From contig CAVTCR010000062.1 in the NCBI GenBank assembly GCA_963733195.1, positions 352,001-416,000 on the forward strand: a stretch of 64,000 bases of DNA. Reading direction: 5' to 3'. Below the pieces are notes generated by a model. It had not been told where the DNA came from and did not search any database. It worked only from the letters and a program-made list of their open reading frames with translations. The DNA is from an uncultured delta proteobacterium. GTDB lineage: Bacteria > Desulfobacterota > Binatia > Bin18. Within the stretch, counting starts at the first letter, position 1. Every line of letters begins with the position of its first letter. Positions 28,214-47,921 of this stretch are shown in pieces. The translations under genes and the position numbers were made by a program.

Positions 28214-28991
28214 GGTTTCAATTCTCCCTCGATAGGGAAACAAAGCATGCATAATACGTCCAGTCACCGTTTGCTGCCTGATCTGAGACCTCTCGGATTT
28301 CTTCTGACACTAAAATAGCACTACCCAGAGTGCAAGTAAGGAACGACCTACCACTGCCGGTCACGTGCATGGTGCTGACAAGTAGTAAGCCGTTCGGTTG
28401 ACGTGAGGCTTTCTTCATTATCGCCAGAGTCTCTTTGATGATTTTGTCATTTCGTTTTTGACTTTGCTTCCTTGATTGTGATTTCCTGATAGCTGCTCGC
28501 GTGTTCTGCAAACGACCTCAGCAGCCTGCGAAGGTCATGGATATCTGCGAAGGGGGGAAACAGATGTCCCGCAACGATCAGGTCACTCGCCAATGGTTAT
28601 TGCTGAAAAACTGGAGCGTTCACACGGCGCAACGCTCCAAGAACTCGCAGATACCCTCCCCGAAGATTATTCCCGCCACCCAGAACGATTCGACGCGACC
28701 TAGAAGCGCTCGAACCCGTTTTCCGTCTGGTGACTGAACAGTGTGAATAGACAGACGCGCTGGCGGCTGATGGACGGGTATCGGCAAGTGCCACCGCTTG
28801 CACTTTCGCCAACAGAACTCATGGCGCTAGTGTTTAGTCGGAACTTACTCAAACCGCTTGACGGGACCGAGATCAAAACTCCCTTGATTCCGCATTAAAT
28901 AAAGCCGCCGCGCTACTGCCGCCGAAGGTGCGGCTTACGTGCAGCAGATGCAGGGGTATTTTGCTGTTGGCCTTGGACCACACAAGACCTA

Positions 28992-30301
28992 AGGAGCTGT
29001 CCATAAACAAGTGTAACAACTTCAGGCGAGCGCCACGGAAGGGCGGATCGCGTAGTTCCAGTCCCCATGAAAATCAGCCGGAAACAAATTGACCGCGGCG
29101 AATTGCTTTTGCGTAATGCGGATGCCGGTTGGGATAGCACCCCGTGTCGAGTTCAGCCTGAACGCGCAACCCGGTGGTCGTGGTCGTGTGGGCAATCAAT
29201 TCGATAATGACAGCGTGACTCGTCAAGGGCTGCCCCCGCCAGTTGGTCGAGATCTGGCTAAACAAGCGATGTTCGATCTTGTTCCATTTGCTAGTCCCTG
29301 GAGGGAAGTGGCAAACCTGGATCCTCACTCCCAGTTCGTCGGCCAACGCTTGCAGCGAGACTTTCCACAGGCGGCTGCGACTGCCGTTGCTGCCTCCGCC
29401 ATCGGCCGTAATCAACAGTTCCCGTGCGTGCGGATACAAAGGCTGCCCGAGGTTTTGCCACCACCGCCGAATCGTGGCCACCGCAAAGGCGGCCGTATCA
29501 TGGTCAATGCCCACACTGACCCAGCCCAGGTTCGCCGTGAGGTCATAAATGCCGTAAGGAATTGCCTTGCCCAGTTTGGGTCGGCAAAGTCGTGGACGCG
29601 CACGCGGGTGGGCTGGCCCCGTCGACACCATTCGCGGCCCGGGTTTTTGAACTCGCCGACCAACTCTTTCTTCTTGGTATCGACCGAAATGACCGGCAGG
29701 CCCGCGCCTGAAAAGCCGCGACGGCGGCCGCGATATACTCGAACTGCGCATTGCGATCGGGATGCTGACTGCCCTCGCGGGTTTTCCGATTGGCCTGCAA
29801 GCTGTACCCCAGCTCGTGCAGCAAGTCCGCCACTTTCTGCCGTTCGATGTGAAACCCCTGTTCCTGCAGTTCGGTCGCCAGCCGCCGCACGCCCTTACAG
29901 GTCCACCGCAACGACGACTCCGGATCTCCACGGGCCGTGGGCTCGACCAGCGCCTCCAGCGCATCGGGCAACTCCGGCTGTGTCACCACCAGTGGTTTCC
30001 GTCCACCCCCAGTACTTCTGATCCGCTGGGGACGCCACGAGGACTGGAGGCTGCTCAGCTCCTTCAGCCCCGCGTGAATCGCGCGCCGCGAGATCCCCGT
30101 GACCCGTGCCACTGCCGAAATTCCCCCATAGCCCAGCGATTTCGCTTCCACTGCTGCCCACACACCGCCGTTCCCGTTCATTGAGCAGCGCACCCAGATC
30201 AGCAAATCGCTGGCGAATAGCCGCGTCTATGCTCGCTCGTTGCATAGACACGCTTTACGTGATCCATCACCAAGTTGTTACGGTTATTTATGGACAATTC
30301 C
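28992..30301 (-). mobile_element. ISAzo13-family insertion sequence with ~31-bp imperfect terminal inverted repeats and a TA/CTA target duplication
   Basis: Left aggagctgtccataaacaagtgtaacaactt versus right aagttgttacggttatttatggacaattcct; CTA at 28989-28991 and 30301-30303. Confidence 0.92.
29022..30245 (-). CDS. ISAzo13 transposase (frameshifted)
   Basis: GDPESSLRWTCK, GYSLQANRKTREGSQHPDRNAQF, LLITADGGGSNG, HFPPGTSKWNKIEHRLFS. Confidence 0.92.
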
Positions 30302-30848
30302 TACCGCCAGCATCAACGGACAATTGATCAACTCACCCGTGCCATCGCCCAATCACGTACCATACAGATGCGCTATTACTCAGCCTCACGAGACGTGACT
30401 AACCGCCGCGAAGCAGACCCATACCGATTGTGGTACACGGACGGAGCACTCTATCTTATTGCTCACTGTCATCGACATGGCGAACCTCGCATGTTCGCGG
30501 TCGATCGCATTCGTTCGCTAACGATTACCAATCAGCCGTGCCAACTCCCGCTGGGCTTTGATCTTGATGCCTACGTACGAGACGCACTCGTAGTGATGCG
30601 AGGAAAGCCGATCGAGGTGGAACAGTTATTCGATCGGTCGAACTGCAGCGTGGGCAAAGGATCGCCAGTGGCATCAGAGTCAACAGAGTACCGTGCACAA
30701 GGATGGACAGGTAACCATGCGGTTGCAAGTCGCCGACACCCGCGAGTTAGTGGGGTGGATTTTACATTTTGGCAGTGGCGTGCGGGTTATCGAGCCGCAA
30801 TCGCTACGAGAAAAGGTGCAGGAAGAGGCACGAAAAATATTTTCGCAC

Positions 30849-30869
30849 GTGTGACCCCGGATGTCACGC
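30849..30869. promoter_or_regulatory. Palindromic operator GTGAC-N7-GTCAC ending 25 bp upstream of cas3
   Basis: gtGTGACcccggatGTCACgc overlapping the WYL stop codon. Confidence 0.55.
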
Positions 30870-30892
30870 TCGTCTGGTAAGCAACGACAATT

Positions 30893-33604
30893 ATGCACAC
30901 ACCATCTCTTCTTTGGGCAAAGAAACATGGACCAAAGGATAACGAAGTTTGGCACCCTCTCCTGTATCACATGATCGATGTCGGTGTGGTAGCCGCAGAA
31001 CTTTGGCACCATGCGTTGCATCGTTCACTCCGGCGGTTCTTTGTAGTTGAGTTTGGTCTTTCTGAACAAGAGACAGTTGCATGGATTTGTTTTCTGGCAG
31101 CGTTACACGATACCGGCAAAGCCTCTCCTGCCTTTCAGAAACAAAGTACCCAAAGCAGTACAACTCCGGTCACAGGGAAAAGGATTCAAATTTGCGCCCC
31201 ATGCACTTCGTTGTCCGCATGGCATCATCACTGCGGATGTTCTGGCTGATCTCTCTGCAATCCTTCTGTATGCCCGCTGATTTTCCCCGCGAGTTAAGGA
31301 AAAGCAGTTGCCTTAACTGTTGGTGGTCATCACGGCGTCTTCGACAAGGACAAATCAAGACCGAATCAACGGGGAAACGAGTCACGGTGGCGTGAAAGGT
31401 CCGGCAAGATATTATCGCTGCGCTTGCAGAGCTTTTCGCTGTCCCTCGTTCGGTAATCCCACGCTCCAGCGCAAATCCAGCCCTGTACATCTTGCTTGCG
31501 GGATTGACCTGCGCAGCCGACTGGATTGGTTCTGATGAACGATACTTTCCCTATTCTCCCGATGAGGCCAGATCCGGCACGCTACCTTGCCAGCGCACGG
31601 CAGCGAGCTGCCCACGCTGTTCAGTCTTTGGGCTGGTCTGGTTGGCATCCTCCCACCTCGTCGGCAGCGTTCAATGATTTGTTTCCCTTTATTGTCGATC
31701 CGCGCCCTTTACAGATCGAAGCTATTGCTCTCTGCCCCGCGCTCTCAACGGCTCAGCCTCTTTGATTATTATCGAGGCACCGATGGGAGAAGGAAAAACC
31801 GAAGCGGCCATGTTTCTGGCTGACTACTGGGCAGCAACCCAGCAACAGCAAGGCTGCTATTTCGCTTTACCGACGCAAGCCACCAGCAATCAGATGTTTG
31901 GACGCGTCAAAAAAATTCCTGAAAGCACGTTATTCTAACTTCCGGGTAAATACTCAACTCGTTCATGGGGCAACGTTACTGTCACAAGAATTCACTGAAC
32001 TGCGATTAGCAACATACCCAGAGGACGGAGAAGGCAACACCAATGAATGCAGCGGAGTCGTCGCCGAAAGCTGGTTTCTGCCAAAGAAACGTTCTTTGCT
32101 TGCACCATTTGGAGTGGGAACCATCGATCAAGCACTTCTGGCTGTCCTCCAAACTAAGCATTTCTTTGTTCGCCTGTTCGGCTTAGCTCACAAAACCATC
32201 ATCATCGATGAGGTCCATGCTTACGACACATACATGTCAACGCTGCTCGAACGGCTGCTCGAATGGCTCCACGCACTTGGTTGTTCGGTTGTTCTTCTGT
32301 CTGCAACCTTGCCAGCGCAGAAGCGGCTGGCGCTACTCAAAGCCTTCGGTAGCAACGAGCCGCAACAGGAAGTGGTGTACCCGCGACTCACCTGGATTTC
32401 AGGCAACGAGAATGGTGCAGTCAACTTTCCAGCCGCACAGCCAAAACAAATCACGGTCCGTCACATCAGCAACGATGTCACTGAACTTGTGCAAGCTCTG
32501 CGCGCAGCAATCGCACAAGGCGGCTGTGTAGCGGTTGTGTGTAACACCGTTGGCCAAGCGCAGGAAATTTATCAGACCCTGAGACAAGAACAGCTTGTGT
32601 CAACCGAATGCCTCCAACTTTTACATAGTCGTTTTCCTTTCGAGGAGCGCGAGAAAAGAGAACGCCGCACGCGCTTGAGTTTTGGAAAAGAGGAGCAAGG
32701 TAAGAGACCGCTCGTTGCCGTTCTAGTTGCCACCCAAATCATCGAGCAAAGTCTCGATCTCGACTTTGACCTCATGGTGACAGACCTCGCACCAGCAGAC
32801 CTGGTGCTCCAGCGTGCAGGGCGTCTACACCGACACGACAATCAACGTCCTACGCCTTTGGCCTCACCGACGCTGTGGTTACGAATGCCGCCCGTAGACG
32901 ATCACCAGATTCCTGAATTCGGTCCCTCAGCAAAAATCTACGATCACTACACACTCCTTCGTTCCTACCTCGCGCTTAAAGACAGACAGTTCATTCAACT
33001 CCCAGAGGACTTAGAAACGATCGTAGAAGCAGTGTACGGCGACCAAGTCTCTTGGCCGTCGGCAGCATGGCAGGAAGCCGCAGCGACAACGAAAGAGGAG
33101 TTCGAGCAAGAAATTGCAAAGGACGAATATAAGGCACGCAGCAACCTCATTGCTTCTCCAAAGACCTCGGAAACACCAGGTGAGTTCTTGGCGCGATTCT
33201 CGCAGCAACTAGAAGAGGATAACCCTGAGGCGCATCAGGCACTTCAAGCGTTAACGCGGTTAGCTGAACCGTCAGTCCAAGTGGTTTGCTTACTACAGAC
33301 TCCGGAGGGTTGCGTTATCAGCCAGACGGAGAAGTTATCGCTCTCAAGGGCAAACCGACTGCTGAAATCAGCCACACTCTTCTTCGTCGCTCTCTAACCA
33401 TTTCAGATAAACGCGTGGTTTTCACTCTTGCTTAAAGAGGAACAATTCAAACCACGTGCCTGGAAAGAAAATGCCGCGCTTCGGCATCACCGTTTGCTAG
33501 TTTTTGAGAACAGTGAGGCAACGATCGGACGGTATACACTCCGGCTTAATCCCGACTTAGGCTTGGTCATAACTACGCCCGACACAGGAGGAAATGCCGA
33601 GTGA
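30893..33604 (+). CDS. cas3: Cas3 HD nuclease-helicase (frameshifted)
   Basis: WHPLLYHMIDV, ALHDTGKASPAFQ, ADWIGS, EAPMGEGKTEAA, IIDEVHAY, LSATL, QRAGRLHRH. Confidence 0.95.
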
Positions 33605-35158
33605 AGTACAGTTTCAACCTTATTGATGAACCATGGATACCGTGTGTGCTTCCCAACGGAGACGCGCTAAGAACTGAGCCTGCGTGACACGTTACTCCAC
33701 GCCCATGAACTTCCGCGCCATCTTCGACCAGTCTCCTTTGGCAACGGCAGCGCTTGCATCGCTTCCTGTTAGCGATTCTCCATCGGAATTTTGGCCCGGC
33801 GTCACGCACGGAATGGAAGCAGCTTGTGGCAAGCGAAGCGATTTGATGAAGGCTCGCTCAACACATACTTCTCCCAGTGGAAGCATCGTTTTGATCTGTT
33901 CGATGAGAACGTACCTTCCTTTTATCAAGTGGCGCAGTTCAAAACGAAGCAGAAGGAGGTCGAAATTAACGACATCCTTCCCGAACTGTCCAGGGGGAAT
34001 AATCCGACCTCTGTTCGACCACACCACGGATAAAACCTGCCTCCCTCTCAGCCCGGCAGAAGCGGCAAAAGCACTGCTCACGCTTCAAGCCTATAAACTT
34101 GGCGGTCTCAGTGGATTGGAAGCGAACTACCGTGACGCACCGAGTAGCCAGAGTCAGTCTACTTGCTTGTCCTTGGGCGGTACGCTCTTTGAAACCTTGC
34201 TCCTCAACTTTGTTTCTTACTTTGGTGATAATCCGATGCCGAAAGATAGGAAACGACGCATCCTATATGGGAGCGAGAGGAAGCGTTGTCAACTGCCTCG
34301 CATCCGGAAGGATACCTCGACTACCTGACATGGCCGACGCTTTCCTTAGCTTTTGTTACCCGCATCCACTTCACACGGCGGAACTGAAGTCGCCAAGACA
34401 AAGATTGCTCTTGGGCGGAATTTTCAACGTAGCCGCATCCTTGACCCAGGCTGTGCCTATTACAAAAACGCCAAAGCAAAAGCAAAAGAAGACCCCTGGC
34501 TCTTCCTTCGCTTTTGGGAACACAAGATGCTTTGGCGAGATAGCACGACTCTTCTCCGCCTTGCTGGCCAGGAAACGCGTCCGCCTCTTGCTCTGACGCA
34601 GGTGGCGCGACTTGTAAGCGATGGAATTCTTGACGCAGGCGCGCAGTATCGCTTGGCCGCCTTTGGCATTTGTCCTGACCAAGCAAGCATCATGTTCTGG
34701 CGTCAAGAACAACTTCCCCTTACCTGTTCGTTATCTTGCCGACGAAAGCTTGGTCAGAACACGTTAAGCATTGGCTCTCAGTCGTGCGGAAACGCTACAG
34801 GTAGTACGTTGCAAAGAACGATGAATCTCTTATCCAAACGTCTGCTCTATCCCAACAAGCAAGAGACAAACCTTACAAAAGCTCAATCGGACGAAGCCGG
34901 ACGCGTGGCACTGCACTTGGCCGCAAGAGAACGCTACTGGGTCTCTCTGGAAATTCCTTTTTCCAATCTTGGCGCGAACCTTACCTGACAACTCAGACGT
35001 GGCGCTCACGGAATGGATGGAAGTACATCCGCTTAGCAGCATTGAATGCCTTCGATGAAACAACAAGCTCACTGGATCAATCAGCACGCGTGCTACGAGC
35101 AGTAGTCACGAGCCGTAGAGATACTGACCAGCAGACTGCGTTACATCCTGGAGTCTGA
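33601..35158 (+). CDS. casA: Type I-E large subunit Cas8e/Cse1 (frameshifted; end approximate)
   Basis: MKYSFNLIDEPWIPC, RFDLFD..FYQ, LFDHT, LSPAEAAKALLTLQAY, GTLFETLLLN, GYLDYLTW, LWRDS. Confidence 0.88.
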
Positions 35159-35181
35159 ACAGTAGGAAAGAGAGGTGAGAG

Positions 35182-35712
35182 ATGGCAACACAAGATTGGT
35201 AGGGATGGATTTATCAAACATCTCGAAAAACTGCGCGACCAAGAGGACCGCAGAGCGCTAGCTCTTCTACGTCGGGGGCTTGGCCGTGAGCCAGGCACAG
35301 TGCCGGAGATGTACTCTCTCGTAGTCCCATGGGTTCCGGAAAATCGATATGCGGAAGATTGCCGCGTTCCTTGTTGCCGCCCTCTTTGCGTTACATCCAC
35401 AATCTGGCGGGCAAAGAACGTTAGGAACCTGCGTTCGCTAACCTTCTGACGCAAGTGAAAGCATCGAGCAGACGCTTCGAACCGCGTTACTGAATTGTCA
35501 TCACGGATGACCTTACTGACGTCATCTCCGTCAATCCGATAAGCCTGTTACGAAGTAAGGAAATCCCTGTCAATTGGCGACAACTGTTGCAGGACGTTCT
35601 TGGGTGGGACCATGAAAGCCGTTTCGTTCAACCGCGCCTGGGCGCGGGAATTTTGGCGTACTGTCGAGCAACCCACGAGATACGGATGAGACTAAGCGAA
35701 GAGGCCGCGTGA
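35182..35712 (+). CDS. casB: Type I-E small subunit Cas11/Cse2 (frameshifted; absent from ORF track)
   Basis: Manual reading: DRRALALLRRGLGREPG, LVAALFALHP, IPVNWRQLLQDVLGW, VQRAWAREFW. Confidence 0.85.
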
Positions 35713-35772
35713 AGAATAAATCTCGGCAATAACTGCTCAACTCTAGCTCTCAACGAAAGAAAGGACTCTCGT

Positions 35773-36950
35773 ATGAAGATTGAACTACACCTCTTGCAAA
35801 ACGTAGCCCCGGCCTGCCTCAATCGCGACGATACGAACACGCCCAAAGATTGTGAGTTTGGGGGAGTACGTCGAGCGCGGATTTCCTCGCAGTGCTTGAA
35901 GCGCTCCATCCGTACCGAGCCAATGTTCGCCAATATCCTCTATAGTGAATTAGGGCATGCGGACCAAAGGCATTGTCAGCCGCCTTGCCACACGTTTAAG
36001 CGAAACAGGCAAAGCGTACGAAGAGGCCGAAGGTGTTGCTGGTGGTTTCGTGGCTGCCGCCCTCAGCGCCCTAGATGAGAAGACCTCGAAATCGAAAGTT
36101 TTGCTCTATCTGGGAGAAGACGAAGTGCAACGTATGGCCAAAATTCTTCTTGCTCAGTATGACGTCCTGCTCGCGGCGAGTAACGAGCGGCAAAAGCAAC
36201 CCCAGCAAGTGGAAAGAAGAGCAAAAGCGATCCGTTTAAGGATGCTTGTGCACAAGTGGCGAAAGGCTTTAAGAGTGGGACGAAAGCGGTCAATATCGCC
36301 CTGTTCGGTCGAATGATGGCTGAACATCCAGAAACCAATGTCGATGCCGCTTGCCAGGTCGCCCACGCCATTTCTACCAACAAAGTCTCCATGGAAATGG
36401 ATTTCTACACGGCAGTCGATGATCTCCAAAGACGATGCGGAAACCGGGGCAGGCATGATGGGGTTTACCGGCTTCAACTCCTCCTGCTTTTACCGTTATG
36501 CAGTCATCGACCTTGCCCAACTCGTCAAAAATCTCAACAACGACCTCGAACTAGCACATAATGCCGTTGAGGCATTTCTCCGCTGCATCTGTCACCGCTT
36601 CCCTGCCGCCAAGCAAAACTCGATGGCTGCGCATAATCCACCCGATGCGATCTTCGCTGTAGTTCGGGAGAATGGTGCTCCGGTATCTCTCGCTAATGCT
36701 TTTGCAAAACCGGTACGTCCCAGCCACGACAGTGACTTGATGGAAGAGTCGATTGCGCAGGCTGGACTGACGTATTGGGGAAAATTGAGCAACCGTGTAT
36801 GGTAAACATGGGGTTACAGCCAAAGCCATTTGTGTTGTTCCAGAGGTGGAACTGAAAAATCTAAAAGATGACATAAAAAGGCATCCTCTGCAGAAACGTC
36901 AGTGAAAGTCGTCAAAGATGCACTGCAAAAGATCACAAGTGGAGACCAGT
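35773..36950 (+). CDS. cas7: Cas7/Cse4 backbone subunit (frameshifted)
   Basis: [86 protein letters not shown]. Confidence 0.95.
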
Positions 36951-36951
36951 C

Positions 36952-37685
36952 ATGAGATGTTATGCTACTCTGCATCTGGTTGGCCCAATGCAGTCATGGG
37001 GAACTCAAAGCCGCTTTTCAATCCGTGACACCGGGCTGGAGCCATCCAAAGAGCGGCGTCGTGCGGCTTGCTTTGCGCTGCTCTTGGGCCGCCCACGTGC
37101 CACGCCAGTAGATGACCTTGCCGCCTTACGCATGGGAGTCCGGGTAGACCGCGAGGGGCGCATGGAAAAAGATTATCACACCACCGATGGACAACGTGAG
37201 GGCACCCCCGGCCCGCGCGGAGTTCTGAAAGCCGGCGGTGGTCTTTCCTACAACGCGGTGTTGTCGACTCGCTTCTACCTCGCTGATGCCGCGTTTCTTG
37301 TTGGTCTGGAAAGCGATGACCTGAATCTTTTGCGCAAACTGGACCGCGCCCTTGCCGATCCAGTCTGGCCGCTTTTTCTCGGACGCAAGGCGTTTCCCCC
37401 AAGTTCACCTGTTCGTCTAGACTGATGGCCTACGCGAAGGAGAAAGCCTGGAAAAAGCGCTGCATGGGTATCAACGCATTGCTACGGCGAGGCGAGGAAA
37501 ATGAGAATACGCTGCTTCGCCTCGTAATGGAAACCTCCACGGGTGAGATGGTGCGTGTTGACCAACCGCTCTCGTTTGCGACCCGTCGCTTCACCCAGCG
37601 ACGAGTAACAACGGCTTGGGTTGCGGCCAACACGCTCTCCTGCAGGAAAGGAGGATCTAATGTTTCTCTCTCAGCTTACCCTTAA
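36952..37685 (+). CDS. cas5: Cas5e
   Basis: LVGPMQSWG..RDTGLEPSK, GVRVDREG..DYHT, RFYLADAAFLVGLE, PVWPLFLGRKAFPPS. Confidence 0.93.
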
Positions 37686-38295
37686 CCCTGTCATCGCGCC
37701 GTGTGCAGGACAGAAATCGGGCGTCCCTACGAGTTACATCGAACTTTGATGCGAGCGTTTCCGTCTGCTCAAGACGAAGGAAGCGACCGTGTTCTCTTTC
37801 GAGTCGAGACGAATCGCGAGACCGGAGCAATCATACTACTCGTGCAGTCAGTCCAGGAACCGAATTGGCAACAGCCCCAGAAACCAGCACCGACTTTTCA
37901 CAGGAACCGCCGAAGTGTAAGCAATTCACTCCAGTCCTTCAGAACCGGTCAACAGCTTAAATTTTCGCCTGCGTGCGAATCCAACCGTCAAACGTCAAGG
38001 CAAGCGTTTCGGGTTGATGAAAGAAGACGAACAATATGTGTGGTTACGACGAAAGGGCGAAACAGGTGGGTTCGCGCCCCTTTCAATTGTTGTCATTCCA
38101 GAGAGACAAATGGAGGACAAAAAAACAGACGATACCGGACATACTCACGATTTGACTCTGATCGCCGTTCGCTTTGATGGCGTCTTGCAGATAACCGACC
38201 TGACAACATTTAACCGGACCTTGGAGCAAGGCGTTGGGAGTGGGAAAGGATTTGGGTTTGGACTGCTCTCGGTTGCACCTAGTGAGGTGAGAGCA
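37660..38295 (+). CDS. cas6e: Cas6e/Cse3 endoribonuclease
   Basis: MFLSQLTLN, PYELHRTLMRAF, RVLFRVE, FRLRANPT-like motif, VRFDGVL..GVGSGKGFGFGLLS. Confidence 0.93.
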
Positions 38296-39200
38296 ATGCG
38301 TAGTTTACATGAACTTCCGCGATTTCGTGACCGTTGGAGCTACCTCTACCTGGAAAAAGGACGGATGGAGGTAGACGGCAGTGGCCTGAAGTTTTCCAAA
38401 AGGGACCGAGACGGACGATATTCCAGTCCCCATCGATCAACTGGCTGTTATCATGCTCGGTCCAGGAACGACCGATTACCCACGCCGCAGTACAGATCAC
38501 TCGCTCAGAACAACTGTTTACTCACCTGGACAGGCGAACAAGGGGTCCGTCTATATGCCGCCAATACGGGCGGGACCTTCAGTGCACGACGAATCATCCG
38601 CCAGGCTGCTTTAGTAAGCGATGAGCGGTCTCGCATCGACGTTGCCAAGCGGATGTATCAGTTTCGTTTTGCCGAGCCGCTGCCCGGAAGATGCACTCAC
38701 TTGAAGTCATTCGCGGCATGGAAGGCATTCGCGTGCGCAAGGTATATGCCGAAATTGCCGACACAATGTTTGGCGTAGAATGGAAAGGTCGGAATTATGA
38801 TCAAACTGAGCTGGTCGTAACGCTGACCCGATCAATCGTGCACTATCCACTGCGACAGCATGTCTCTATGGCCTTTGTCACGCGGCCATCCTCTCGGCAG
38901 GGTATTCCCACGCTTTAGGGTTCATTCATACCGGGAAGATGTTGAGCTTCGTCTACGACATCGCCGACCTGTACAAAACTGAAATCGTGATTCCTCTCGC
39001 CTTTCGCATCGTGAGCCAGAAGCCAGAAGATCTTAGAGCGTACAGTTCGACTTGCATGTCGTGATGCCTTTGCCGATTCACGGCTTAATGAACCGCATAC
39101 TGCCTGATATCGCGGAGGTGCTTCATGCTGGTGATGATAGTCGAGAGAGTATCGACGAGTTTAAGGAACGACATTGTCACGTTGGCTCATTGAGCCAAGT
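38296..39200 (+). CDS. cas1: Cas1 (type I-E; frameshifted; end approximate)
   Basis: [67 protein letters not shown]. Confidence 0.93.
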
Positions 39201-39453
39201 ACGGGAGTCTTCGTTGGGAATCCCAGTGCGCGAATTCGTGACGAATTGTGGAAGAAAGTCCTTGATGAACGCCCCCGAAGGAAGCGGCCTTACAGATTTG
39301 GTCAGCGCAAACACCCGCAAGGATTCGCGTACCGGCAACATAACCCGGCGCCATACGAGAACTAGTAATTATTGAGGGCATCAACGCTCGTCCGAACTAT
39401 TAACAAAGAGATATTTCCTCAATCGAAAGGAAGAAACAGTAAATTCCTTGTGA
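39125..39453 (+). CDS. cas2: Cas2 (type I-E; end approximate)
   Basis: [37 protein letters not shown]. Confidence 0.88.
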
Positions 39454-39489
39454 CGCAAAGTTTCAGAACGTTTGTTTGCAGTTTCCAGA

Positions 39490-40075
39490 GTCTTCCCCAC
39501 ACGCGTGGGGGTGAACCGACACTGCGCTGGCATTGCAGATGTACTACAAGATGTCTTCCCCACACGCGTGGGGGTGAACCGTGTCCGTCAGTCCTGCTAG
39601 TCGGCTTCGCTATCTGTCTTCCCCACACACGTGGGGGTGAACCGACGCCGGAGTGGGCGCGGAAAACTGGCGCGGAAGTCTTCCCCACACACGTGGGGGT
39701 GAACCGACACTGATCGGGCTTCTATTGGCGAGGAGCGCAGTCTTCCCCACACACGTGGGGGTGAACCGTCTTTAAGGCACATGTTCCGAACGACATTCCT
39801 GTCTTCCCCACACACGTGGGGGTGAACCGGCCGCACTCACCAGCCTGTCCGCTAGCGCCAGTCTTCCCCACACACGTGGGGGTGAACCGTCCAAGCGACT
39901 AATATCGTCGATGTCACGCTGGTCTTCCCCACGCACGTGGGGGTGAACCGCACTATCGTAGATCGGCACGGAACACGTTGACGAGTCTTCCCCACGCACG
40001 TGGGGGTGAACCGGCGACAGTAGGATGTCAGTATCAGAGATGTTTCGTCTTCCCCACGCACGTGGGGGTGAACCA
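39490..40075 (+). CRISPR. Type I-E CRISPR array: 10 repeats of 29 bp (GTCTTCCCCAC-NNNN-GTGGGGGTGAACCG), 9 spacers of 31-34 bp
   Basis: Repeats start at 39490, 39553, 39616, 39678, 39740, 39801, 39861, 39922, 39985, 40047; the last ends in A instead of G. Confidence 0.98.
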
Positions 40076-40078
40076 TCA

Positions 40079-40119
40079 GTGATAAAACTTTCCTTGTGAT
40101 GCCGAAAGGCGTTGAGCAC
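40079..40119 (+). repeat. Orphan CRISPR-repeat-like unit A (type I-B/Myxococcus-dev-like class)
   Basis: gtgataaaactttccttGTGATGCCGAAAGGCGTTGAGCAC; hairpin GATGCC-GAAA-GGCGTT. Confidence 0.65.
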
Positions 40120-40266
40120 GAGGGATAAGTTTCTCGCTCCTGGTTTCTAGTTTCGATTTTCAGATCGGCGTGAGCTTCTTTGAAATGTCGTGGACATCTG
40201 GATCTCTTATACCTTCGTGTGCACGGCGCACGCTACAGGATTGGTGAGCGGGGCTTTTTCTATTGA

Positions 40267-40666
40267 CTAATAGTCGTCCACTTGCAGATTCGGAATTCTG
40301 GAAGTGTCGGAGGTTTCGGGTAATAACAGTGTCGTTATCCACTAACGCTTGGGGGCCAATCAGCAGGTCCATAGTCGCAACCGTGTATCGTTGTCGCTTC
40401 AGCTCGGAAAGGATTTCCCCGTAAACCGGCGCAAAGCGTTCGTCGGGGTACACCACTTCGAACTGTTCACAAATGCGCCGTACCCTGTGGCGCTCCTCAG
40501 GGTCCTGAGAAAGTGCTACGCCAGCTTCAAGCTCGCACACCACAAAGACACTCAGTCGAACAGGAGAGTTTCCCAACTGTTGAAGCTTTTTATGCACGCG
40601 TCCTGTAACGCTACAACGCTGTTCTCGAAGGAGGTCTATAACAAAAGTAGTATCAAAGAAACTCAT
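40267..40666 (-). CDS. vapC: VapC-family PIN toxin (frameshift near 3' end; true end IPNLQVDDY*)
   Basis: FFDTTFVIDLL, VVCELEAG, MDLLIG..AL..ITRNLRHF. Confidence 0.9.
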
Positions 40667-40896
40667 AGCCGCAGGATGCGTGCTGAATGCCGACGGCGCT
40701 CTTTGACCTGCATCTCGATCTCGTCGAGGCTTTCCTCTGTCAAGGTGAGGGAAGGCAATGCGCGTAAAAGCGCTGCGGCAGTTTTGTGCTTCCCAAAATG
40801 TTTCTTGATGACTGTCGAGAATGATTGTCCAGGTCGCTTTTGGCGAGACAAGATCTCATACGCATCCATGTCGATAGTAATAGTCTTGACTGCCAT
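40663..40896 (-). CDS. vapB: VapB-family antitoxin (DUF217-like)
   Basis: MAVKTITIDMDAYEILSRQKRPGQSFSTVIKK; overlaps the vapC start (ATGA). Confidence 0.85.
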   Translation of the reverse strand: MAVKTITIDMDAYEILSRQKRPGQSFSTVIKKHFGKHKTAAALLRALPSLTLTEESLDEIEMQVKERRRHSARILRL

Positions 40897-40942
40897 GCGC
40901 TGAGCGTACACTGATTTTGGCCCGAAAACAACGATTATTCCT

Positions 40943-40978
40943 CGATGTCCCTTTGTGATGCCGAAAGACGTTGAGCAC
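40943..40978 (+). repeat. Orphan CRISPR-repeat-like unit B
   Basis: ccctttGTGATGCCGAAAGACGTTGAGCAC; 23/24 identical to the core of unit A. Confidence 0.65.
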
Positions 40979-41126
40979 TTCAGACAGAGACGAGAGATAA
41001 AGACAGAGTTGAAAGCTAGATCTGTTATCGTGCGCCTAATGAATGCTATGGAATTAGTGGACGATGCCCACCCTACTGACTGTAGGTTCTCTAATTCATT
41101 TGTGGATTATACCGTTCATGCGTCGA

Positions 41127-41216
41127 CTGCACCCTGCGGGTGGAGTTTATCCTGAGCCAGGTCGAAGGACTCAGCACGAACGGACCGCGAAAGCCGCTCG
41201 TCTTGAGCGGAGCGAA
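41127..41216. repeat. REP/MITE-like element, copy 3
   Basis: ggagtttatcctgagccaggtcgaaggactcagcacgaacgg..cttgagcggagcgaa. Confidence 0.6.
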
Positions 41217-41246
41217 GACGTGCCCGTACCCAAGAACGGCGAGGTC
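41217..41246 (+). repeat. Relic copy of the DUF4139 gene 3' end (direct repeat of 27701-27730)
   Basis: gacgtgcccgtacccaagaacggcgaggtc versus gatgtgcctgtaccacagaacggcgaggtc, 26/30 identical; DVPVPKNGEV versus [10 protein letters not shown]. Confidence 0.8.
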
Positions 41247-41318
41247 GTGGTTGAACAGAACAGAGGATGACTCCGTCTAATAGAAACAAACTCGCCTTCT
41301 GCTTGGGGGAAACTTGAT

Positions 41319-43637
41319 ATGAGTCTATCTCGCAGTGTCATCGTTGGCACGGTCATCTTGGTTGTTACTTTTGTTGCTCATGCCGAAGAAACCACGCAAA
41401 AGGTGGTCCCTTCCTCGGCACAACCGGTTAACAAATCAACGGAAGCGCAAATCTTCGAGAAGATCCTGGCTCAATATAACAATCTGACCTACGACCAACT
41501 CAAGGCGGAGCTAAAACCTCGCCAGTATTTAGACAAGTTATCCTTCGATCCCGCCACGGTGAAGTATTTCGACAGAGCTGCCTCAGGATTAAAACTGAAT
41601 GACCAAGAACGAGCGATCTTCAAACGCAACGGTTTTGTCTCTGTCGATCATGATCAACGCTACAGTTTTGCATCAGCCTACTACGCAATTTACACAAGAG
41701 ATTTGCCTGTCCTGATCACGACTGACTCTATTCTTCATGCAATGCATCGCTCCTACGATCAGATCTTGCTCGAACTGGAGATGACCTTTTTTTCCTACAC
41801 GATTGAGGAAGTCCTCACTGCTTGCCACGAAGAACTCTCTCGACTCGCAGAGCAGAATCGCAATCCTGTCCTTGTGGATCACTATCGCGATGTCGACCTC
41901 TATCTAACCGTTGCACGTAACCTTCTTGCTGGAGCAGGCGCTGACGTATCTGCTCCACCAGACCCCAGCGGAGAGCAGGAAATGGATGAATGGAAAGGAT
42001 ACCTACTCGTTACGTCGAAAATGGAGCAAGATGCCAAGGTCTTAGAGATTCTTAGCCCCGTCCGTTCATTAACGCTGCAAACACCAGGGCTTCCGCTCAC
42101 AACCATTTATGGCGGTGAGCGTTCCATTGATTACTCACAGTTTCGTCCTCGTGGTCATTACACTAAGGCGACAATCTTAAAGCGATATTTCCGTACTATG
42201 ATGTGGATCGGACGGGCAGATTGTGGTTGGAATATCAACTCGGATCGCGAACTCGGAAACGCTGTCCTGTTGGTTGAATTGCTCACAAAAACCAACAGCA
42301 TCAAACGGATTCAAACGCTTGATGACCTTATCACCTTCATGGTCGGCAGAAGTGATAACCTGCGCATCTTTGACTTGCTCAGGATCATGCAGGATCACCA
42401 GCTCACCACACTCGGAGACATTACGAATGTAGCCACGCGAGAGCTACTCAAAAAGGCGATTGCGTCAGGAGCGTATGGCCAACAACGGATTCGCTCTCAG
42501 GTTATGAAGTCTTTCCCTGACGTGCCAGAGAAGGTCGCACCTCCACAGATTTTCCAGTTATTCGGTCAGCGCCTTGTCATCGACTCGTTCCTGTTATCGC
42601 AGGTCGTCTTCGATTCCATCGTCTATCAAGGAAAGAAGGTTCAGCGCTTTATGCCTACAGGGCTCGATGTCATGGCTGCGTTGGGGAACACCGAAACCAT
42701 TCCGCTCCTGGCTGCTGAGCTGACACAGTATCCGTACAGTGCGAACCTGAAGGCAGGCCAAGTGTTTGTGGGTCTCTATGATCCCGACTTTTGGCGCGAG
42801 AATCTGTATAACATCTGGCTCGACGCATTACGCATACTTGACGATGACATGACGCAACAAAAGCACTTTCCCCAAATTATGCGTACTCAGACATGGCAGA
42901 TGAAACAACTACAAACACAGCTGGCCTCTTGGGCTGAGCTACGTCACGATACGATTTTGTATGCAAAGCAATCCTATACTGCCTTCGCGGTGTGCGAGTA
43001 CCCAACCGGGTACGTGGAACCCTACCCTCACCTTTATGCCAAGGTAAAAGATTTTGCCAAAGAAACAGTGCGGCTTTTGGAGAAAATCGACTTTTCTTCT
43101 CCCAATGCCCAGAAATACGGCGAACTAGGCCTAATGAAAATGCGACAGCTCGCTTTCCTAAACACGATGACGGGTCACCTTGGTCAACTTGAAAAATTAG
43201 CGCAAAAGGAACTCATGGCCCAACCATTCACTTCTGAGGAGCAACTGTTTCTGAAGAAGACGATTGATGCCCGCGGGGGGGGAAGTGGCGGACCCAATTA
43301 TGACGGTTGGTACTGTGATCTTTTCTATGGAGGTGAGTATGCGGCGATGAAATGGGACCCCACCATCGCTGACGTACATACGGACCCGAATAGTGGGCAA
43401 GTCTTAGAAGTGGGCGTTGGGGATGCCAATTTTCTGGTTGCCGCGATTGACAACGAAGAGGATCATCTGGTCTATGTCGGCCCGATGTTCTCGTATTACG
43501 AATTCACACAACCAGCAAGTAAACGCCTTACCGATGAAGAATGGCAGAATAAGATCTCTAACAACATGTTGCCACCACGACCAACATGGACTTCTTCATT
43601 CCAAGGACCTCGGCAGAAACGCGAGGCCGGACGGTGA
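41319..43637 (+). CDS. DUF3160-domain secreted protein
   Basis: Signal peptide; ITTDSILH, DYSQFRPRGHYT, YFRTMMW, LASWAELRHDTILYAKQSY, GYVEP, IADVHT, GPMFSYYEF..RLTDEEW. Confidence 0.88.
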   Translation: MSLSRSVIVGTVILVVTFVAHAEETTQKVVPSSAQPVNKSTEAQIFEKILAQYNNLTYDQLKAELKPRQYLDKLSFDPATVKYFDRAASGLKLNDQERAIFKRNGFVSVDHDQRYSFASAYYAIYTRDLPVLITTDSILHAMHRSYDQILLELEMTFFSYTIEEVLTACHEELSRLAEQNRNPVLVDHYRDVDLYLTVARNLLAGAGADVSAPPDPSGEQEMDEWKGYLLVTSKMEQDAKVLEILSPVRSLTLQTPGLPLTTIYGGERSIDYSQFRPRGHYTKATILKRYFRTMMWIGRADCGWNINSDRELGNAVLLVELLTKTNSIKRIQTLDDLITFMVGRSDNLRIFDLLRIMQDHQLTTLGDITNVATRELLKKAIASGAYGQQRIRSQVMKSFPDVPEKVAPPQIFQLFGQRLVIDSFLLSQVVFDSIVYQGKKVQRFMPTGLDVMAALGNTETIPLLAAELTQYPYSANLKAGQVFVGLYDPDFWRENLYNIWLDALRILDDDMTQQKHFPQIMRTQTWQMKQLQTQLASWAELRHDTILYAKQSYTAFAVCEYPTGYVEPYPHLYAKVKDFAKETVRLLEKIDFSSPNAQKYGELGLMKMRQLAFLNTMTGHLGQLEKLAQKELMAQPFTSEEQLFLKKTIDARGGGSGGPNYDGWYCDLFYGGEYAAMKWDPTIADVHTDPNSGQVLEVGVGDANFLVAAIDNEEDHLVYVGPMFSYYEFTQPASKRLTDEEWQNKISNNMLPPRPTWTSSFQGPRQKREAGR

Positions 43638-43859
43638 ATCGTCCGAAGTTCCGTAGGTTGTGCAGAAGCGAAGCGTTGCCCAACAATCAGTAGCGCATGG
43701 GGTTTGGCACGAGCAGTTCAATCTACGGAGATCATTCTCCATCTCTCTTCATGTCTCCCTCGCACGTCGAGGACTAAGAGTCGAGAATAGTCTTCAGTGC
43801 GTGGTTCCGCTCCCCCCTCCACCAGTTATTCGCGTGTGGATATCGCGCGTTAGCTCTCA

Positions 43860-44809
43860 GAGGCTCTCCGGAAACCTTTATGCAGCCGCAGCATAGCGAA
43901 ATTCACGCTGGGCCGATGGAGCAAGTTTGCGCAGCATCAAGTGAATGTTGCTCAGTTGGATCATGGCAGCGGCAGATTCTGGCTTGCGCTCATAGTCCTT
44001 GCGGTTGCGTCGCGCCCGGCCATTCCACGCCTTCGTGCGCTCCACCACCCAGCGTTTACGTACAGGCGTAACCCCCGTGCTGCCTGCTGGCCGGGCCTTC
44101 CCCTCGATTCTCCAGCCCGGCCGCTTCTTCGTCAGCCACTCTTCGAGCGCCTGATGGTGATACTTGGTATCGCCAAAGATCGTCGGCAGGCGGGGACCGT
44201 CTGGCACGCTGATTTGCGCAAGTACCATTGCCGCCGCGACCCCCTCATCGACCTGTGCCCTCGTAATCACGACAGCCATGAGTAACCCCAGGGTATCCAC
44301 CAGCAAATGCCGCGTGCGACCCTTGATTTTCTTCCCCCCGTCATAACCGCGTTCCTTGCCGCCGATCTCGGTGGTCTTCACCGATTGACTCTCGATGCAC
44401 GCGGCACTGGGAGTGGACTCCCGCCCCGCTTCCCGACGCACCCGCTCCCGCAAGGCCGTCAGAATCTTGCTCCCAGTTCCCTCCTCGCGCCACTGCGCAA
44501 AATAGTCATAGCCGCTACTTTTGGCCAGCAAGTCCTGCGGCCGCCTCTCCCCTTGGCAGCCACTGCGGTTCAGATACAAGAGCGTGTTGAGTACCTCGCG
44601 CCTGTCGAGTTCCCGGGGGCGGCCTCCCCGAGTGTAGCGGGGGGCGGGAATCAGAGGTTCTATGATTGCCCATTGAGCATCCGTGAGATCCGAAGGATAC
44701 GCCTTCCGCTTTTCATGCTCCTCCGCCATCCTTGCTCCCTCCTATGCTTGCTCAATGTTGCCCTCCCTCTTACCACATCTTTTGCCAAAATCAGTTTCCG
44801 GAGAGCCTC
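43860..44809 (-). mobile_element. IS5-family element (IS1031-like), 16-bp perfect terminal inverted repeats
   Basis: GAGGCTCTCCGGAAAC ... GTTTCCGGAGAGCCTC; flanks TCA / TAA. Confidence 0.9.
43878..44729 (-). CDS. IS5-family transposase, probably degenerate
   Basis: YPSDLTDAQW, GYDGGKKIKG, LLVDTLG, RWVVERT; consensus IDSQSVK reads IESQSVK and GCQW reads GCQG. Confidence 0.85.
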   Translation of the reverse strand: MAEEHEKRKAYPSDLTDAQWAIIEPLIPAPRYTRGGRPRELDRREVLNTLLYLNRSGCQGERRPQDLLAKSSGYDYFAQWREEGTGSKILTALRERVRREAGRESTPSAACIESQSVKTTEIGGKERGYDGGKKIKGRTRHLLVDTLGLLMAVVITRAQVDEGVAAAMVLAQISVPDGPRLPTIFGDTKYHHQALEEWLTKKRPGWRIEGKARPAGSTGVTPVRKRWVVERTKAWNGRARRNRKDYERKPESAAAMIQLSNIHLMLRKLAPSAQREFRYAAAA

Positions 44810-45140
44810 TAACATGCGTGCCGTGAGCGCTTGCGATTCGAGCAGCATGGTTGCAAGCGCTCTCGTGCTGTCCGCCACGACTTGCGCGATCCGCTCCTGT
44901 CCTTGCGCGATCCGCTCCTGTCCCCTGTGCAATCTGCTCTTGCCCTTGGGCGATTCGTTCTTGTCCCTGCTGGAGCCGTTCCTGTCCTTTGCTGATCTCA
45001 CTCAATGCCACGATGGTTGCCTGGTTCTGTCGTTCTTGTCGCTCGGACGATTGTTGTAGCCACGCAACAAGCTGGGCATTCCCTTCACGCATTTCGGCTG
45101 CGAGCGTCAGAATTGCCTCAGTTGTACTAGTTCGTGCCAT
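44810..45140 (-). pseudogene. Small coiled-coil protein with 21-bp (GQERIAQ) tandem repeats; 3' end cut by IS5
   Basis: MARTSTTEAILTLAAEMREG..KGQERLQQGQERIAQGQEQIAQ.GQERIAQGQERIAQVV; the frame continues ML-ELTRDIHTRIT beyond the IS (from 43856 leftward). Confidence 0.6.
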
Positions 45141-45377: not shown

Positions 45378-46249
45378 ATGCAACGTCTCTTCGCTTTTGC
45401 GGTCACTACTACACTGTGGTTGTCCACATCGTGGGCGCTAGCCGAGTTTTCCACATCGATTATGAAACCGACACCAGTAGATGCCAATGGCGTCATTAGT
45501 GCACCGTTCCCTAGCGGTGGGCAAAGCACCTTGTATTATTTTTCTGTTGAGGCGCAACCTGGTGATCTCCTCACGCAGATCTCTTATCAAGGACGGGCCA
45601 GAGCGGATAAACAGTTAGAACTGTCGCTGATCAACGAGAATGGTAAGCAAGGCAACTCGTACTGGATTCATGGGTCTGATCCCATAGCAGAGGGAACTCG
45701 GAGCTTTCCTATCGACAAAAAAGGACGGCAGATAGTTCGCCTCGCTGTGCGAGGCCCTGAAACAGGGCAATTTCGAGTCGAGTTAGGTGGAACTGCTGTC
45801 AGTGGCGCGACACCCAAAAGTCCGCAACTTCACAATGGGTTTTCTCGCTCTATCTTCATACCTACTCAGGTTGGCAATGATGGCGTAATTAGCGGTTCAC
45901 TACCTGGAACTGAGGCACCAGCCGTCTACTATTTCGTCGTCAACGCTAAGGCAGGAGAGCTGCTCACACAAATTTCTTACGAAGGGCGTGACGGAGCCCA
46001 TAAAGAACTCACCCTGCGACTGCTAGGACCTGATGCGCGAAGTGCCCAATGGTACTGGATTCACGGTTCTGATCCCAAGAAGAATCAACTCGTAGTTTCC
46101 CAATCGATTCGGCCGGGCGCAAGGTGTTTTGTATCGAGGTTGCTGGACCGGCAACCGGAACCTTCCGTGTTGAGTTGGGAGGCTCTGCTTTCGTCAGTAA
46201 TAATGCAGATAAGAAAGCGCCAGTGACGACGAGTCAGGCAGCACGTTAG
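45378..46249 (+). CDS. Secreted protein with two tandem ~120-aa beta-rich (PPC-like) domains; frameshift near 46085
   Basis: Signal peptide; duplicated FSxSIxxPTxV..GVIS..YYF.V.A..GxLLTQISY.GR..YWIHGSDP..TRSFPID..GP.TG.FRVELGG. Confidence 0.7.
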
Positions 46250-46290: not shown

Positions 46291-46541
46291 AGCCTCCTCT
46301 TTCACATCAGTGCGCAACCATAGAATCGTCGGGTCGAGATTGTCATTGATACCTGCGATCGCACAGCCAATGCGGGCAAGTAAGCGAGACGACAAGACAT
46401 GGATCCGAAGACCGGACCGTCGTCCTTGCTCATTATCTCTCCAGTCTAACCTGCCCTTTGATAGAAGAGGGAACCTTAAATCCATCATTGAGAACACGAG
46501 AGCTTTTGGCTATTGTGCCCCCGGAAAAGGGAGGTCTTGTC

Positions 46542-47633
46542 GTGGCTCAACGTTCTTACCCTCCAACAGAAACCATACGCCTCGGGTTCTGGGCTCCCGT
46601 GTACGGCAACTGGATCTTCTCGAAGCATCCAGCAACACACAATGCGTCGTTCGATTATACTCGTCGATTGACAACGCTCGCTGAGGAGATCGGTTTCGCT
46701 ACCCTGCTCCTTGCCGAGCACACGTTTAATCCATTCGACGCAGAAAGTGATCAGCTCGAAACCTGGACCTCAACCGCTGGTCTCGCCACCATCACCAAAC
46801 ACATTGAGTTAATGCCTGCGGTACGACCCACGTTTAAGCATCCAGTGCTGACAGCCAAAATGGCAGGCAACATCGATCAGATGAGCGGCGGACGGATGGC
46901 GATCAATCTCGTCTCCGGCTGGTGGCAAAAAGAAAGTGATGCCATGGGAATCCCAAGTCTTCCCCATGACGATCGCTATCAACGTTCGGAGGAGTATCTC
47001 ACGATTCTCAAGGGTTTGTGGACGCAACCGCACTTCAGTTTCTCTGGTCAGTATTATCAAGTGAACGATGTCACGCTTGCCCCACTACCAGTGCGTAAAC
47101 CACACCCGCGCATTTATCTCGGTGGAGAGTCTGATATTGCCCAGCGTTTGGCTGCTAAATTAGCTGACGACTATCTTATCAATGGCCGTCCGGTTGAAGA
47201 AGTAAAGCAATTGATCGACCATATCCGGCCGTATGCGGCTGAATCTGGGCGCCGCTTGCAGTTTGGTATCAGTGCGTTTGTCATTTGCCGCAAGACTGAA
47301 GAAGAGGCGTGGAAAGAACACGCGCGCCTCCACTCCATACGCGCGGAAGAGATGATCCCAGGTGTCGATCGTAAAGTTACGATGATCCGTACTTATGCGT
47401 ATCGCGCCGGTGCAGTCGGCTCGAACGGTGGCACTGATGCAGGCCTGGTTGGCACACCACAACAGATCGCTGATCGCCTGCGTGCGTTTCACGATATCGG
47501 AGTGACGACGTTTCTCCTACAATTTCACCCGATGTTAGAAGAGATGCAACGGTTCGGTGAGGAAGTTGTGCCGCTGTTAGAAAAAGCCAACGTGTGGCAA
47601 CATCCGGCTCGCAGCGAGGCGCGTCATGTTTGA
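46542..47633 (+). CDS. LLM-class flavin-dependent monooxygenase (SsuD/SfnG-like)
   Basis: AEEIGFATLLLAEH, IDQMSGGRMAINLVSGW, HDDRY, IYLGGES, GLVGTPQQIADRL. Confidence 0.88.
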   Translation: MAQRSYPPTETIRLGFWAPVYGNWIFSKHPATHNASFDYTRRLTTLAEEIGFATLLLAEHTFNPFDAESDQLETWTSTAGLATITKHIELMPAVRPTFKHPVLTAKMAGNIDQMSGGRMAINLVSGWWQKESDAMGIPSLPHDDRYQRSEEYLTILKGLWTQPHFSFSGQYYQVNDVTLAPLPVRKPHPRIYLGGESDIAQRLAAKLADDYLINGRPVEEVKQLIDHIRPYAAESGRRLQFGISAFVICRKTEEEAWKEHARLHSIRAEEMIPGVDRKVTMIRTYAYRAGAVGSNGGTDAGLVGTPQQIADRLRAFHDIGVTTFLLQFHPMLEEMQRFGEEVVPLLEKANVWQHPARSEARHV

Positions 47634-47921
47634 TATCTCGGTCCTTCCACAGTTAATCCGTCATGATAGTGAATACTTCCACAGTGGCTCGCCAGAGGAA
47701 CAGGAACGACGGCAACGTCAGCTCGTGGCTGATAACGAAGTCTTACTGAAACCATGCTGGAGGGAATGCGGCACAACGCTGAACGCTTCTTGATAGAGAA
47801 ACTCGGCCTTGATCCGTCGGTAATGGAAGCATTTGCCCATATTCCTGAGCGTACCCGGTTCATCTACCGCACGATTGGTATTGAAGAGAGCAATTGGCCG
47901 TTATGGTTGAAGGCGGCATAA
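47626..47921 (+). CDS. Small hypothetical protein (one frameshift)
   Basis: MFDISVLPQLIRHDSEYFHSGSPEEQERRQ...MLEGMRHNAERFLIEKLGLDP...WPLWLKAA*; fills the gap between two co-oriented genes. Confidence 0.45.

Follow-up and report, generated by a model that had tools for sequence, protein, structure and literature searches.

The window analysed here is a stretch of 64,000 nucleotides (nt) from an uncultured delta proteobacterium of the Binatia (contig CAVTCR010000062.1, positions 352,001 to 416,000, read on the forward strand). Directly behind a type I-E CRISPR array, it carries a vapB-vapC toxin-antitoxin (TA) pair that runs antisense to the array and is bracketed by two repeat units, A and B, of another subtype. 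The units are repeats of type I-MYXAN, a variant of type I-B. They are probably relics of the trailer end of an I-MYXAN array that was displaced in place by the I-E module, with a vapBC cassette lying between them. The genome that contains the window (G000) is a 93% complete assembly of 6,946,292 bases in 87 contigs. The features on which the analysis centers are as follows.

39489 to 40075, plus strand: type I-E CRISPR array of 10 repeats, from a repeat scan; the last repeat ends in GAACCA
40079 to 40119, plus strand: unit A, a full-length I-MYXAN repeat, GTGATAAAACTTTCCTTGTGATGCCGAAAGGCGTTGAGCAC
40120 to 40263, no strand assigned: 144-nt stretch between unit A and the end of the cassette, partly read as the frameshifted vapC tail
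40160 to 40666, minus strand: vapC, PIN-domain toxin gene (PF01850, E 2.2e-09), 168 amino acids (aa) against 133
40264 to 40921, minus strand: conserved vapBC cassette of 658 nt, made up of ~25 nt of 5' region, vapB, and vapC to its ancestral stop (about 40265-40267)
40663 to 40896, minus strand: vapB antitoxin gene, 77 aa (PF02697, E 6.4e-13)
40903 to 40931, minus strand: candidate weak promoter, TTGTTT-17 nt-TACGCT, read by eye and from an upstream comparison
about 40941 to 40978, plus strand: unit B, an I-MYXAN repeat with its 5' third unrecognisable or truncated

Units A and B are direct copies whose starts lie 859 nt apart. They align without gaps over 26 nt, with 25 of 26 bases identical (96%), and the 24-nt core of unit A returns at 40955-40978 with one mismatch. 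Unit A begins 3 nt (TCA) after the last I-E repeat. A first-pass annotation of this DNA had described two near-identical units around an antisense vapB-vapC operon, and its coordinates, the single core mismatch and the 3-nt gap are all confirmed. Both copies are damaged: in unit A five nt (TAAAA) have been inserted after GTGA, with the 3' 26 nt undamaged, and the 3' core of unit B is intact save for one G-to-A change, which disrupts a C-G pair in its hairpin. The unit A hairpin (GAUGCC-GAAA-GGCGUU) has a predicted folding energy of -17 kcal/mol on the plus strand (z -3.3) and -7.8 on the minus strand. Two pairs of the modelled hairpin GAUGCC-GNNA-GGCGUU are G-U, which restricts it to the plus strand, and units A and B therefore have the orientation of the I-E array.

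The two matches are confined to this locus. Shuffling the window's dinucleotides 100 times never produced two core matches, the whole assembly contains two forward and no reverse matches to the core at up to three mismatches (none for the reversed control), and a profile built from the repeats of 12 relatives matches only units A and B (E 3.5e-07 and 2e-05; the next hit has E 1.1). A chance match and a genome-wide repetitive extragenic palindromic (REP) element are ruled out by the shuffles, the two-copy count and the profile search. The same profile found no more decayed repeats in 40120-40940 or past unit B at E up to 100. With two copies 859 nt apart, the units do not form a regular array, which would have at least three repeats and spacers of ~30-40 nt.

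The class assignment rests on the 3' part of the repeat. The closest Rfam family is CRISPR-DR33, against which unit A scores 28.2 bits (E 0.0016) and unit B 17.7, both below the gathering score of 39 because the 5' third is divergent. The hallmark of the class is a 36-nt unit with a 3' hairpin and tail, GAUGCC-N4-GGCGUUGAGCAC, which is exact in unit A and has one mismatch in unit B; the same core occurs in arrays of G023, G029, G002 and G010. Of 301 genomes sampled from the class, 28 contain the exact 22-nt core (GATGCC-N4-GGCGTTGAGCAC); for the family the figure is 21 of 48, and no genome has a control match. Most occurrences form arrays in which 36-nt repeats recur every 71-73 nt, in up to about 70 copies. 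G023, a complete genome, has its array behind an operon of cas6_cmx6, cas3, cmx8, cas7, cas5_devS, a fused cas4-cas1_MYXAN and cas2, in which the type I-MYXAN Cas6/Cmx6, Cmx8, Cas5/DevS and Cas1_MYXAN pass the NCBIfam cut-offs. The CRISPR-DR33 resemblance and this array beside I-MYXAN cas genes bear out the proposed likeness to I-B repeats of the Myxococcus dev class. Single I-MYXAN cores also occur remote from arrays, in short gaps among metabolic or housekeeping-looking genes, at L089 (G021), L085 (G062:C81), L094 (G018:C111) and L096 (G024).

The window itself has no matching cas genes, as had been noted before, and none were found in the rest of the assembly. A tblastn search of the 93%-complete assembly with eight G023 proteins gave no I-MYXAN cas gene above threshold. 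The Cmx6 and Cmx8 profiles (TIGR02807, TIGR04413) likewise found nothing above threshold in G000; the Cmx8 profile is also silent in control genomes, so its result is weak alone. The genome encodes one generic Cas6, on contig C28, unrelated to I-MYXAN. A scan of the genome for regularly spaced 20-mers showed five other arrays, all with different repeats, along with two simple repeats that are not CRISPR. As no cognate Cas6 or Cascade was found and both copies are damaged, units A and B probably have no present CRISPR role.

The region upstream of the I-E array carries a second remnant of the older system and the decayed newcomer.

28596 to 30879, plus strand: relic of a WYL-domain regulator gene, in pieces at 28596-29046 and 30296-30879, with internal frameshifts
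about 28999 to 30302, no strand assigned: ~1.3-kb insertion sequence (IS)-like insert bounded by imperfect ~24-nt terminal inverted repeats, TGTCCATAAA..GTAACAACTT
31898 to 39375, plus strand: pseudogenised type I-E cas operon with cas3, cse1 (two open reading frames, ORFs), cas7, cas5, cas6e, cas1 and cas2 fragments

A WYL gene heads the I-MYXAN operon in relatives. The relic in the window matches the WYL protein of G023 at 46-57% identity across several frames (tblastn) and has Pfam WYL/WCX matches. The insert encodes ORFs of 296 and 310 aa on opposite strands, with no Pfam match, and has no second copy in G000.

Synteny was compared with two genomes of the same genus, G001 and G002. On G002 contig C299 an uninterrupted WYL gene aligns to window positions 28455-28991 and 30294-30879 and is followed directly by cas6_cmx6 and cas3. 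Another G002 contig has cas4-cas1 and cas2, then a 20-repeat I-MYXAN array, and at most 160 nt past the array end come homologs of window positions 45427-46108 and 46502-47605 in the same orientation. G001 has a homolog of 46503-47637 with two full repeats, 36 nt of spacer between them, upstream of it, again in the same orientation. Because G001 and G002 carry I-MYXAN parts beside the same flanking genes, the interval bounded by conserved genes at ~28.5 kb and 45.4 kb held an I-MYXAN system in this genus. The first-pass annotation had named three outcomes as counting against a special role for the repeats: no match to a CRISPR repeat, a generic REP, and an ordinary decayed I-B array in relatives with no conserved link to TA genes. 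The last largely describes what was found, since relatives have I-MYXAN arrays of the ordinary kind at this chromosomal position and none of 13 metagenomic vapBC relatives carries such repeats; the motif does match a CRISPR repeat class and is not a generic REP.

The I-E cas operon that now stands at this site consists of short, overlapping, out-of-frame ORFs, and the window genes outside 27-39.4 kb are intact. Pfam coverage is partial for the two Cse1 ORFs (124-197 and 257-424 of 450), Cas7 (203-311 of 361), Cas5 (4-154 of 217), Cas6e (17-141 of 223) and also Cas3. The I-E array is still regular, unlike its cas operon. The whole locus, including the WYL gene, the I-E operon and vapC, is decaying.

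Junctions of a similar kind occur in other genomes. In G076 (L087, C6, 1431-1523) an 11-nt I-MYXAN stub, a 36-nt spacer and one full repeat come, in this order, directly after a foreign array that ends in ATTGAAAC, and in G039 (L102, C52, 497-606) a solitary I-MYXAN core stands behind another foreign array. These junctions suggest that I-MYXAN systems have repeatedly been displaced in place by other CRISPR-Cas modules. As a separate observation, a 249-nt soil metagenome contig (run X4, record 9) has an I-MYXAN core with a piece of an I-E-type repeat 47 nt later. The order is the reverse of that in the window (39923-40119), and this is a single low-depth contig that is possibly chimeric.

The two genes between the units have the organization of a type II VapBC pair, with a small antitoxin gene before a PIN toxin gene and a 4-nt overlap (40663-40666). 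By ortholog alignment vapB most likely starts at the ATG at 40896, and unit B begins about 46 nt upstream of it. The candidate vapB promoter ends 6 nt before this ATG and would give a leaderless mRNA; its -35 element falls outside the conserved cassette, and a consensus promoter scan of 39300-41400 listed no sites, the candidate included. In vapC, a 2-nt deletion after codon 123 (two A missing from CAGAAAATTCC in G000) changes the last 10 residues and lengthens the ORF by 35 codons. The ancestral frame is kept in all eight orthologs: in five the homologous stop closes a conserved IPNL-type tail, two extend six codons further, and one has a close variant of the tail. The window copy lacks this usual C-terminus. 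The vapBC locus appears to be an ordinary type II TA pair with its own weak predicted promoter, whose toxin gene seems to be beginning to decay.

Among 55 genomes of the family the closest VapC is that of G010, from a different genus (73% identity, E 5.1e-56); nine other relatives have matches near 30%. The VapB proteins of the two genomes are also 73% identical. A scan of genome contigs for VapC gave two loci, one 100% identical to the G010 query and most likely the same locus, the other at 29%. Metagenomes yielded 13 vapBC loci, mostly on contigs of just 1.1-2.7 kb, seven of them at 71-78% aa identity. Eight orthologs in all lie at 53-78%, seven within that narrower range. Six orthologous loci align by blastn at 71.8-77.6% identity, with borders at window positions 40264-40268 and 40918-40921, and L066 and L067 match a shorter span inside the cassette. 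Beyond 40264-40921 the flanks of the orthologs are unrelated to the window. Since the orthologs share only that span amid unrelated flanks, the 658-nt unit behaves as a mobile cassette. The 144 nt from 40120 to 40263 show no homology to the orthologous cassettes or to the same-genus genomes. Within the genus no homolog of the vapBC DNA was found; only the repeats and one dispersed element just past unit B matched.

41083 to 41217, no strand assigned: dispersed REP-like element of ~135 nt with hairpin potential, outside the CRISPR relic

This element has nine more partial matches in G000 and several in G001 and G002.

The metagenomic orthologs have a repeat of their own. A 110-nt element with two hairpins precedes the cassette in six of the seven closest (L062, L064, L065, L066, L067, L068) and also follows it in three. 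It shows compensatory changes in the first stem and is always oriented with the genes. Several of these contigs are the same locus in related organisms and hence are non-independent. The element is absent from G000, and no AAC...GTT core sites of the attC kind were seen in its alignment.

We infer the following order of events. An I-MYXAN array would once have filled a variable hotspot between genes conserved to ~28.6 kb and from 45.4 kb. Its cas genes, leader and nearly the whole array may then have been swapped in place for an I-E cas operon and array, leaving relics at both ends, the WYL gene upstream and two trailer-end repeats downstream. The I-E module would later have decayed too. A mobile vapBC cassette may have entered a spacer of the old array, at a place where the same-genus genome has an ordinary 36-nt spacer. 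Being addictive, the TA pair could have helped this short stretch escape deletion, including by recombination between A and B. On the whole, the locus looks like evolutionary debris and not like a new mechanism.

Several points weigh against so simple a history. The vapBC pair of G010 sits in sense orientation 35 nt beyond the final repeat, a perfect one, of a live I-MYXAN array, in a genome that carries cas6_cmx6. That one cassette should lie beside I-MYXAN repeats in two genera by pure chance is unlikely, given that PIN genes number 26 and 31 per genome, and a plain relic leaves this contact unexplained. The divergence within the repeats is also uneven: against the same-genus repeat, the 3' 24-26 nt of A and B carry 0 and 1 changes, and the 5' thirds are strongly diverged. 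This is odd for plain neutral decay; gene conversion, breakpoints within the repeat or selective constraint on the hairpin core could each account for it. Finally, the lack of cognate cas genes is judged on a 93%-complete assembly.

These points bear on the proposal, already raised in the first-pass annotation, that the cassette was captured through the repeats, that is, that vapBC arrived or moves by recombination at CRISPR repeats. In one such route, a circle with one repeat and vapBC, derived from another I-MYXAN array, would cross over in the 26-nt core and leave two direct repeats. This concerns the arrival of the cassette and is compatible with the relic origin of the repeats, but we consider it rather unlikely. 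As expected for an in-core crossover, A and B share 25 of the 26 core bases and differ wholly upstream. Just 5' of TGTGATGCC, A, B and a solitary unit in G001 (C843) have T where array repeats have C. The G010 ortholog abuts an I-MYXAN array, and G037 (L097, C36, 1443-2208) has other cargo between two I-MYXAN repeats: an AT-rich ~650 nt with an antisense 179-aa ORF, which has a signal-peptide-like start and no Pfam family, followed at normal spacing by a third, degenerate repeat. However, the orientation of vapBC relative to the repeats differs between G000 (antisense) and G010 (sense), which is impossible from one shared repeat-vapBC module, and 36 nt is scant homology for RecA. Nor do the flanks of any of the 13 metagenomic relatives, which are short, contain the repeat. 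G005 was considered as an empty site for the G010 insertion, but only the repeat and the neighboring monooxygenase gene align and borders are undefinable. In twenty of 24 public runs no more than 0.12 of the sampled words occur; four runs yielded short contigs only, and in these no repeat-cassette junction and no circular or deleted form was seen. One RNA-library contig spans 40650-40873 and indicates neither transcription nor strand.

Two regulatory alternatives fare worse against the same locus. Solitary repeat units (SRUs) elsewhere give rise to CRISPR RNA (crRNA)-like RNAs that repress toxin or defence promoters (10.1101/2024.12.27.630466; PMC10651486), and A or B might similarly yield a crRNA-like RNA that guides Cascade to the vapBC or cas promoter (as in CreTA or crlRNA), or act as a sponge for Cas proteins like an RNA anti-CRISPR (Racr). 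Unit A forms a good plus-strand hairpin, and its partner B is situated just upstream of the presumed vapB promoter, yet such a function, which the first-pass annotation had offered as one of its options, is highly improbable and finds no support here. Genes for I-MYXAN Cas6, Cmx8 and other effectors were not found in the assembly, and the hairpin of unit B is broken. The 40 nt past each unit share at most nine contiguous bases with any site within 36000-45000 and none at the vapB promoter; their best match genome-wide is a low-complexity 28 nt (E 0.036). Racr repeats are solitary repeats on viruses or mobile elements, and this locus is chromosomal and syntenic, with flanks common to the two same-genus genomes. 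Antisense control, in which read-through from the I-E leader crosses the array and unit A, runs antisense to vapC-vapB and couples the toxin to array transcription, is very unlikely. The strands would suit it (I-E array, A and B on plus, vapBC on minus), as would the absence of terminator-like sites from the array end to vapC in a consensus scan. But the promoter scan was empty over this region as well, the I-E operon is pseudogenised, and the geometry is not conserved, with the G010 cassette lying sense behind its array.

How often I-MYXAN repeats and TA genes meet was surveyed at 17 loci with at most three I-MYXAN repeats and without an adjacent I-MYXAN cas operon (the solitary unit G018:C347 was left out). 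TA-type neighbours lie within about 300 nt at four of the 17: this window, G001:C843, G001:C713 and G017. At G001:C843 (L031, 1503-2492) a solitary repeat is followed by a DUF3368/UPF0175 pair within about 200 nt, antisense, and in G017 (L083, 3170-4157) a solitary repeat is followed by a HepT-like/nucleotidyltransferase pair within about 200 nt, sense. G001:C713, with a HigA-like helix-turn-helix gene and a 37-aa remnant, is weaker evidence. Elsewhere in the survey three loci lie behind foreign arrays, one beside Cas1/Cas2 fragments and two beside other defence-type genes, and the remainder are among ordinary genes or unknown ORFs. One of nine full arrays, that of G010, has a recognisable trailer-side pair; the large trailer ORFs of G002 and G015 were outside the Pfam scan. 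A broader proposal would link the vapBC lineage and I-MYXAN repeats specifically: hairpin-forming repeats, CRISPR repeats included, would serve as landing or recombination sites for addictive cassettes, which then anchor the repeats against deletion. The contacts behind it are the antisense cassette between two repeats in G000, the sense cassette after a live array in G010, and a third lineage between the 110-nt two-hairpin repeats. We regard such a link as doubtful.

The displacement of the I-MYXAN system by the I-E module has known parallels. In Escherichia coli cas-E genes have been replaced in place (Almendros et al. 2014, PMC3903273), and as in the window a cas set was swapped at a fixed site, with insertion elements and older remnants beside the newer system. 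Unlike there, the subtypes exchanged in the window (I-MYXAN for I-E) have unrelated repeats, only two repeats are left of the old array, and the newcomer has itself decayed. In the Sulfolobales, vapBC pairs occur among cas gene cassettes and were suggested to help maintain the locus (Garrett et al. 2015, PMC4390879). That case resembles this one in having vapBC inside a CRISPR-Cas region, and differs in that the present pair, from a bacterium, is enclosed by two repeats of a relic array. In chromosomal integron arrays, TA cassettes penalise cassette loss (PMC13108822). There as here an addictive pair would stand between direct, recombination-prone repeats, and losing the DNA between them would mean losing the antitoxin gene; integrons have attC sites and an integrase, and the CRISPR repeats have no known recombinase, so that a stabilising effect here would be by analogy. 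Protection of the fragment from deletion by the TA pair would fit both the integron (PMC13108822) and the Sulfolobales (PMC4390879) cases. The SRU regulators (CreTA, crlRNA) and RNA anti-CRISPRs share with the window isolated repeats next to a TA locus and away from a cognate array. They differ in that here no cognate effector and no promoter-matching pseudo-spacer was found, and the pair consists of a PIN toxin and a protein antitoxin. We found no description of a TA pair between two CRISPR repeats in the open-access literature searched.

The locus is a clean, well-bounded case of CRISPR-Cas turnover at one hotspot, with in-place replacement, relics at two ends and decay of the newcomer. It cautions that a lone repeat beside a TA pair need not be a regulator. 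If the contact between vapBC and I-MYXAN repeats exceeds the clustering of genes in defence islands, CRISPR repeats may be landing or recombination sites for small cassettes. If true, addictive genes would shape which array fragments survive, as a CRISPR counterpart of integron TA cassettes.

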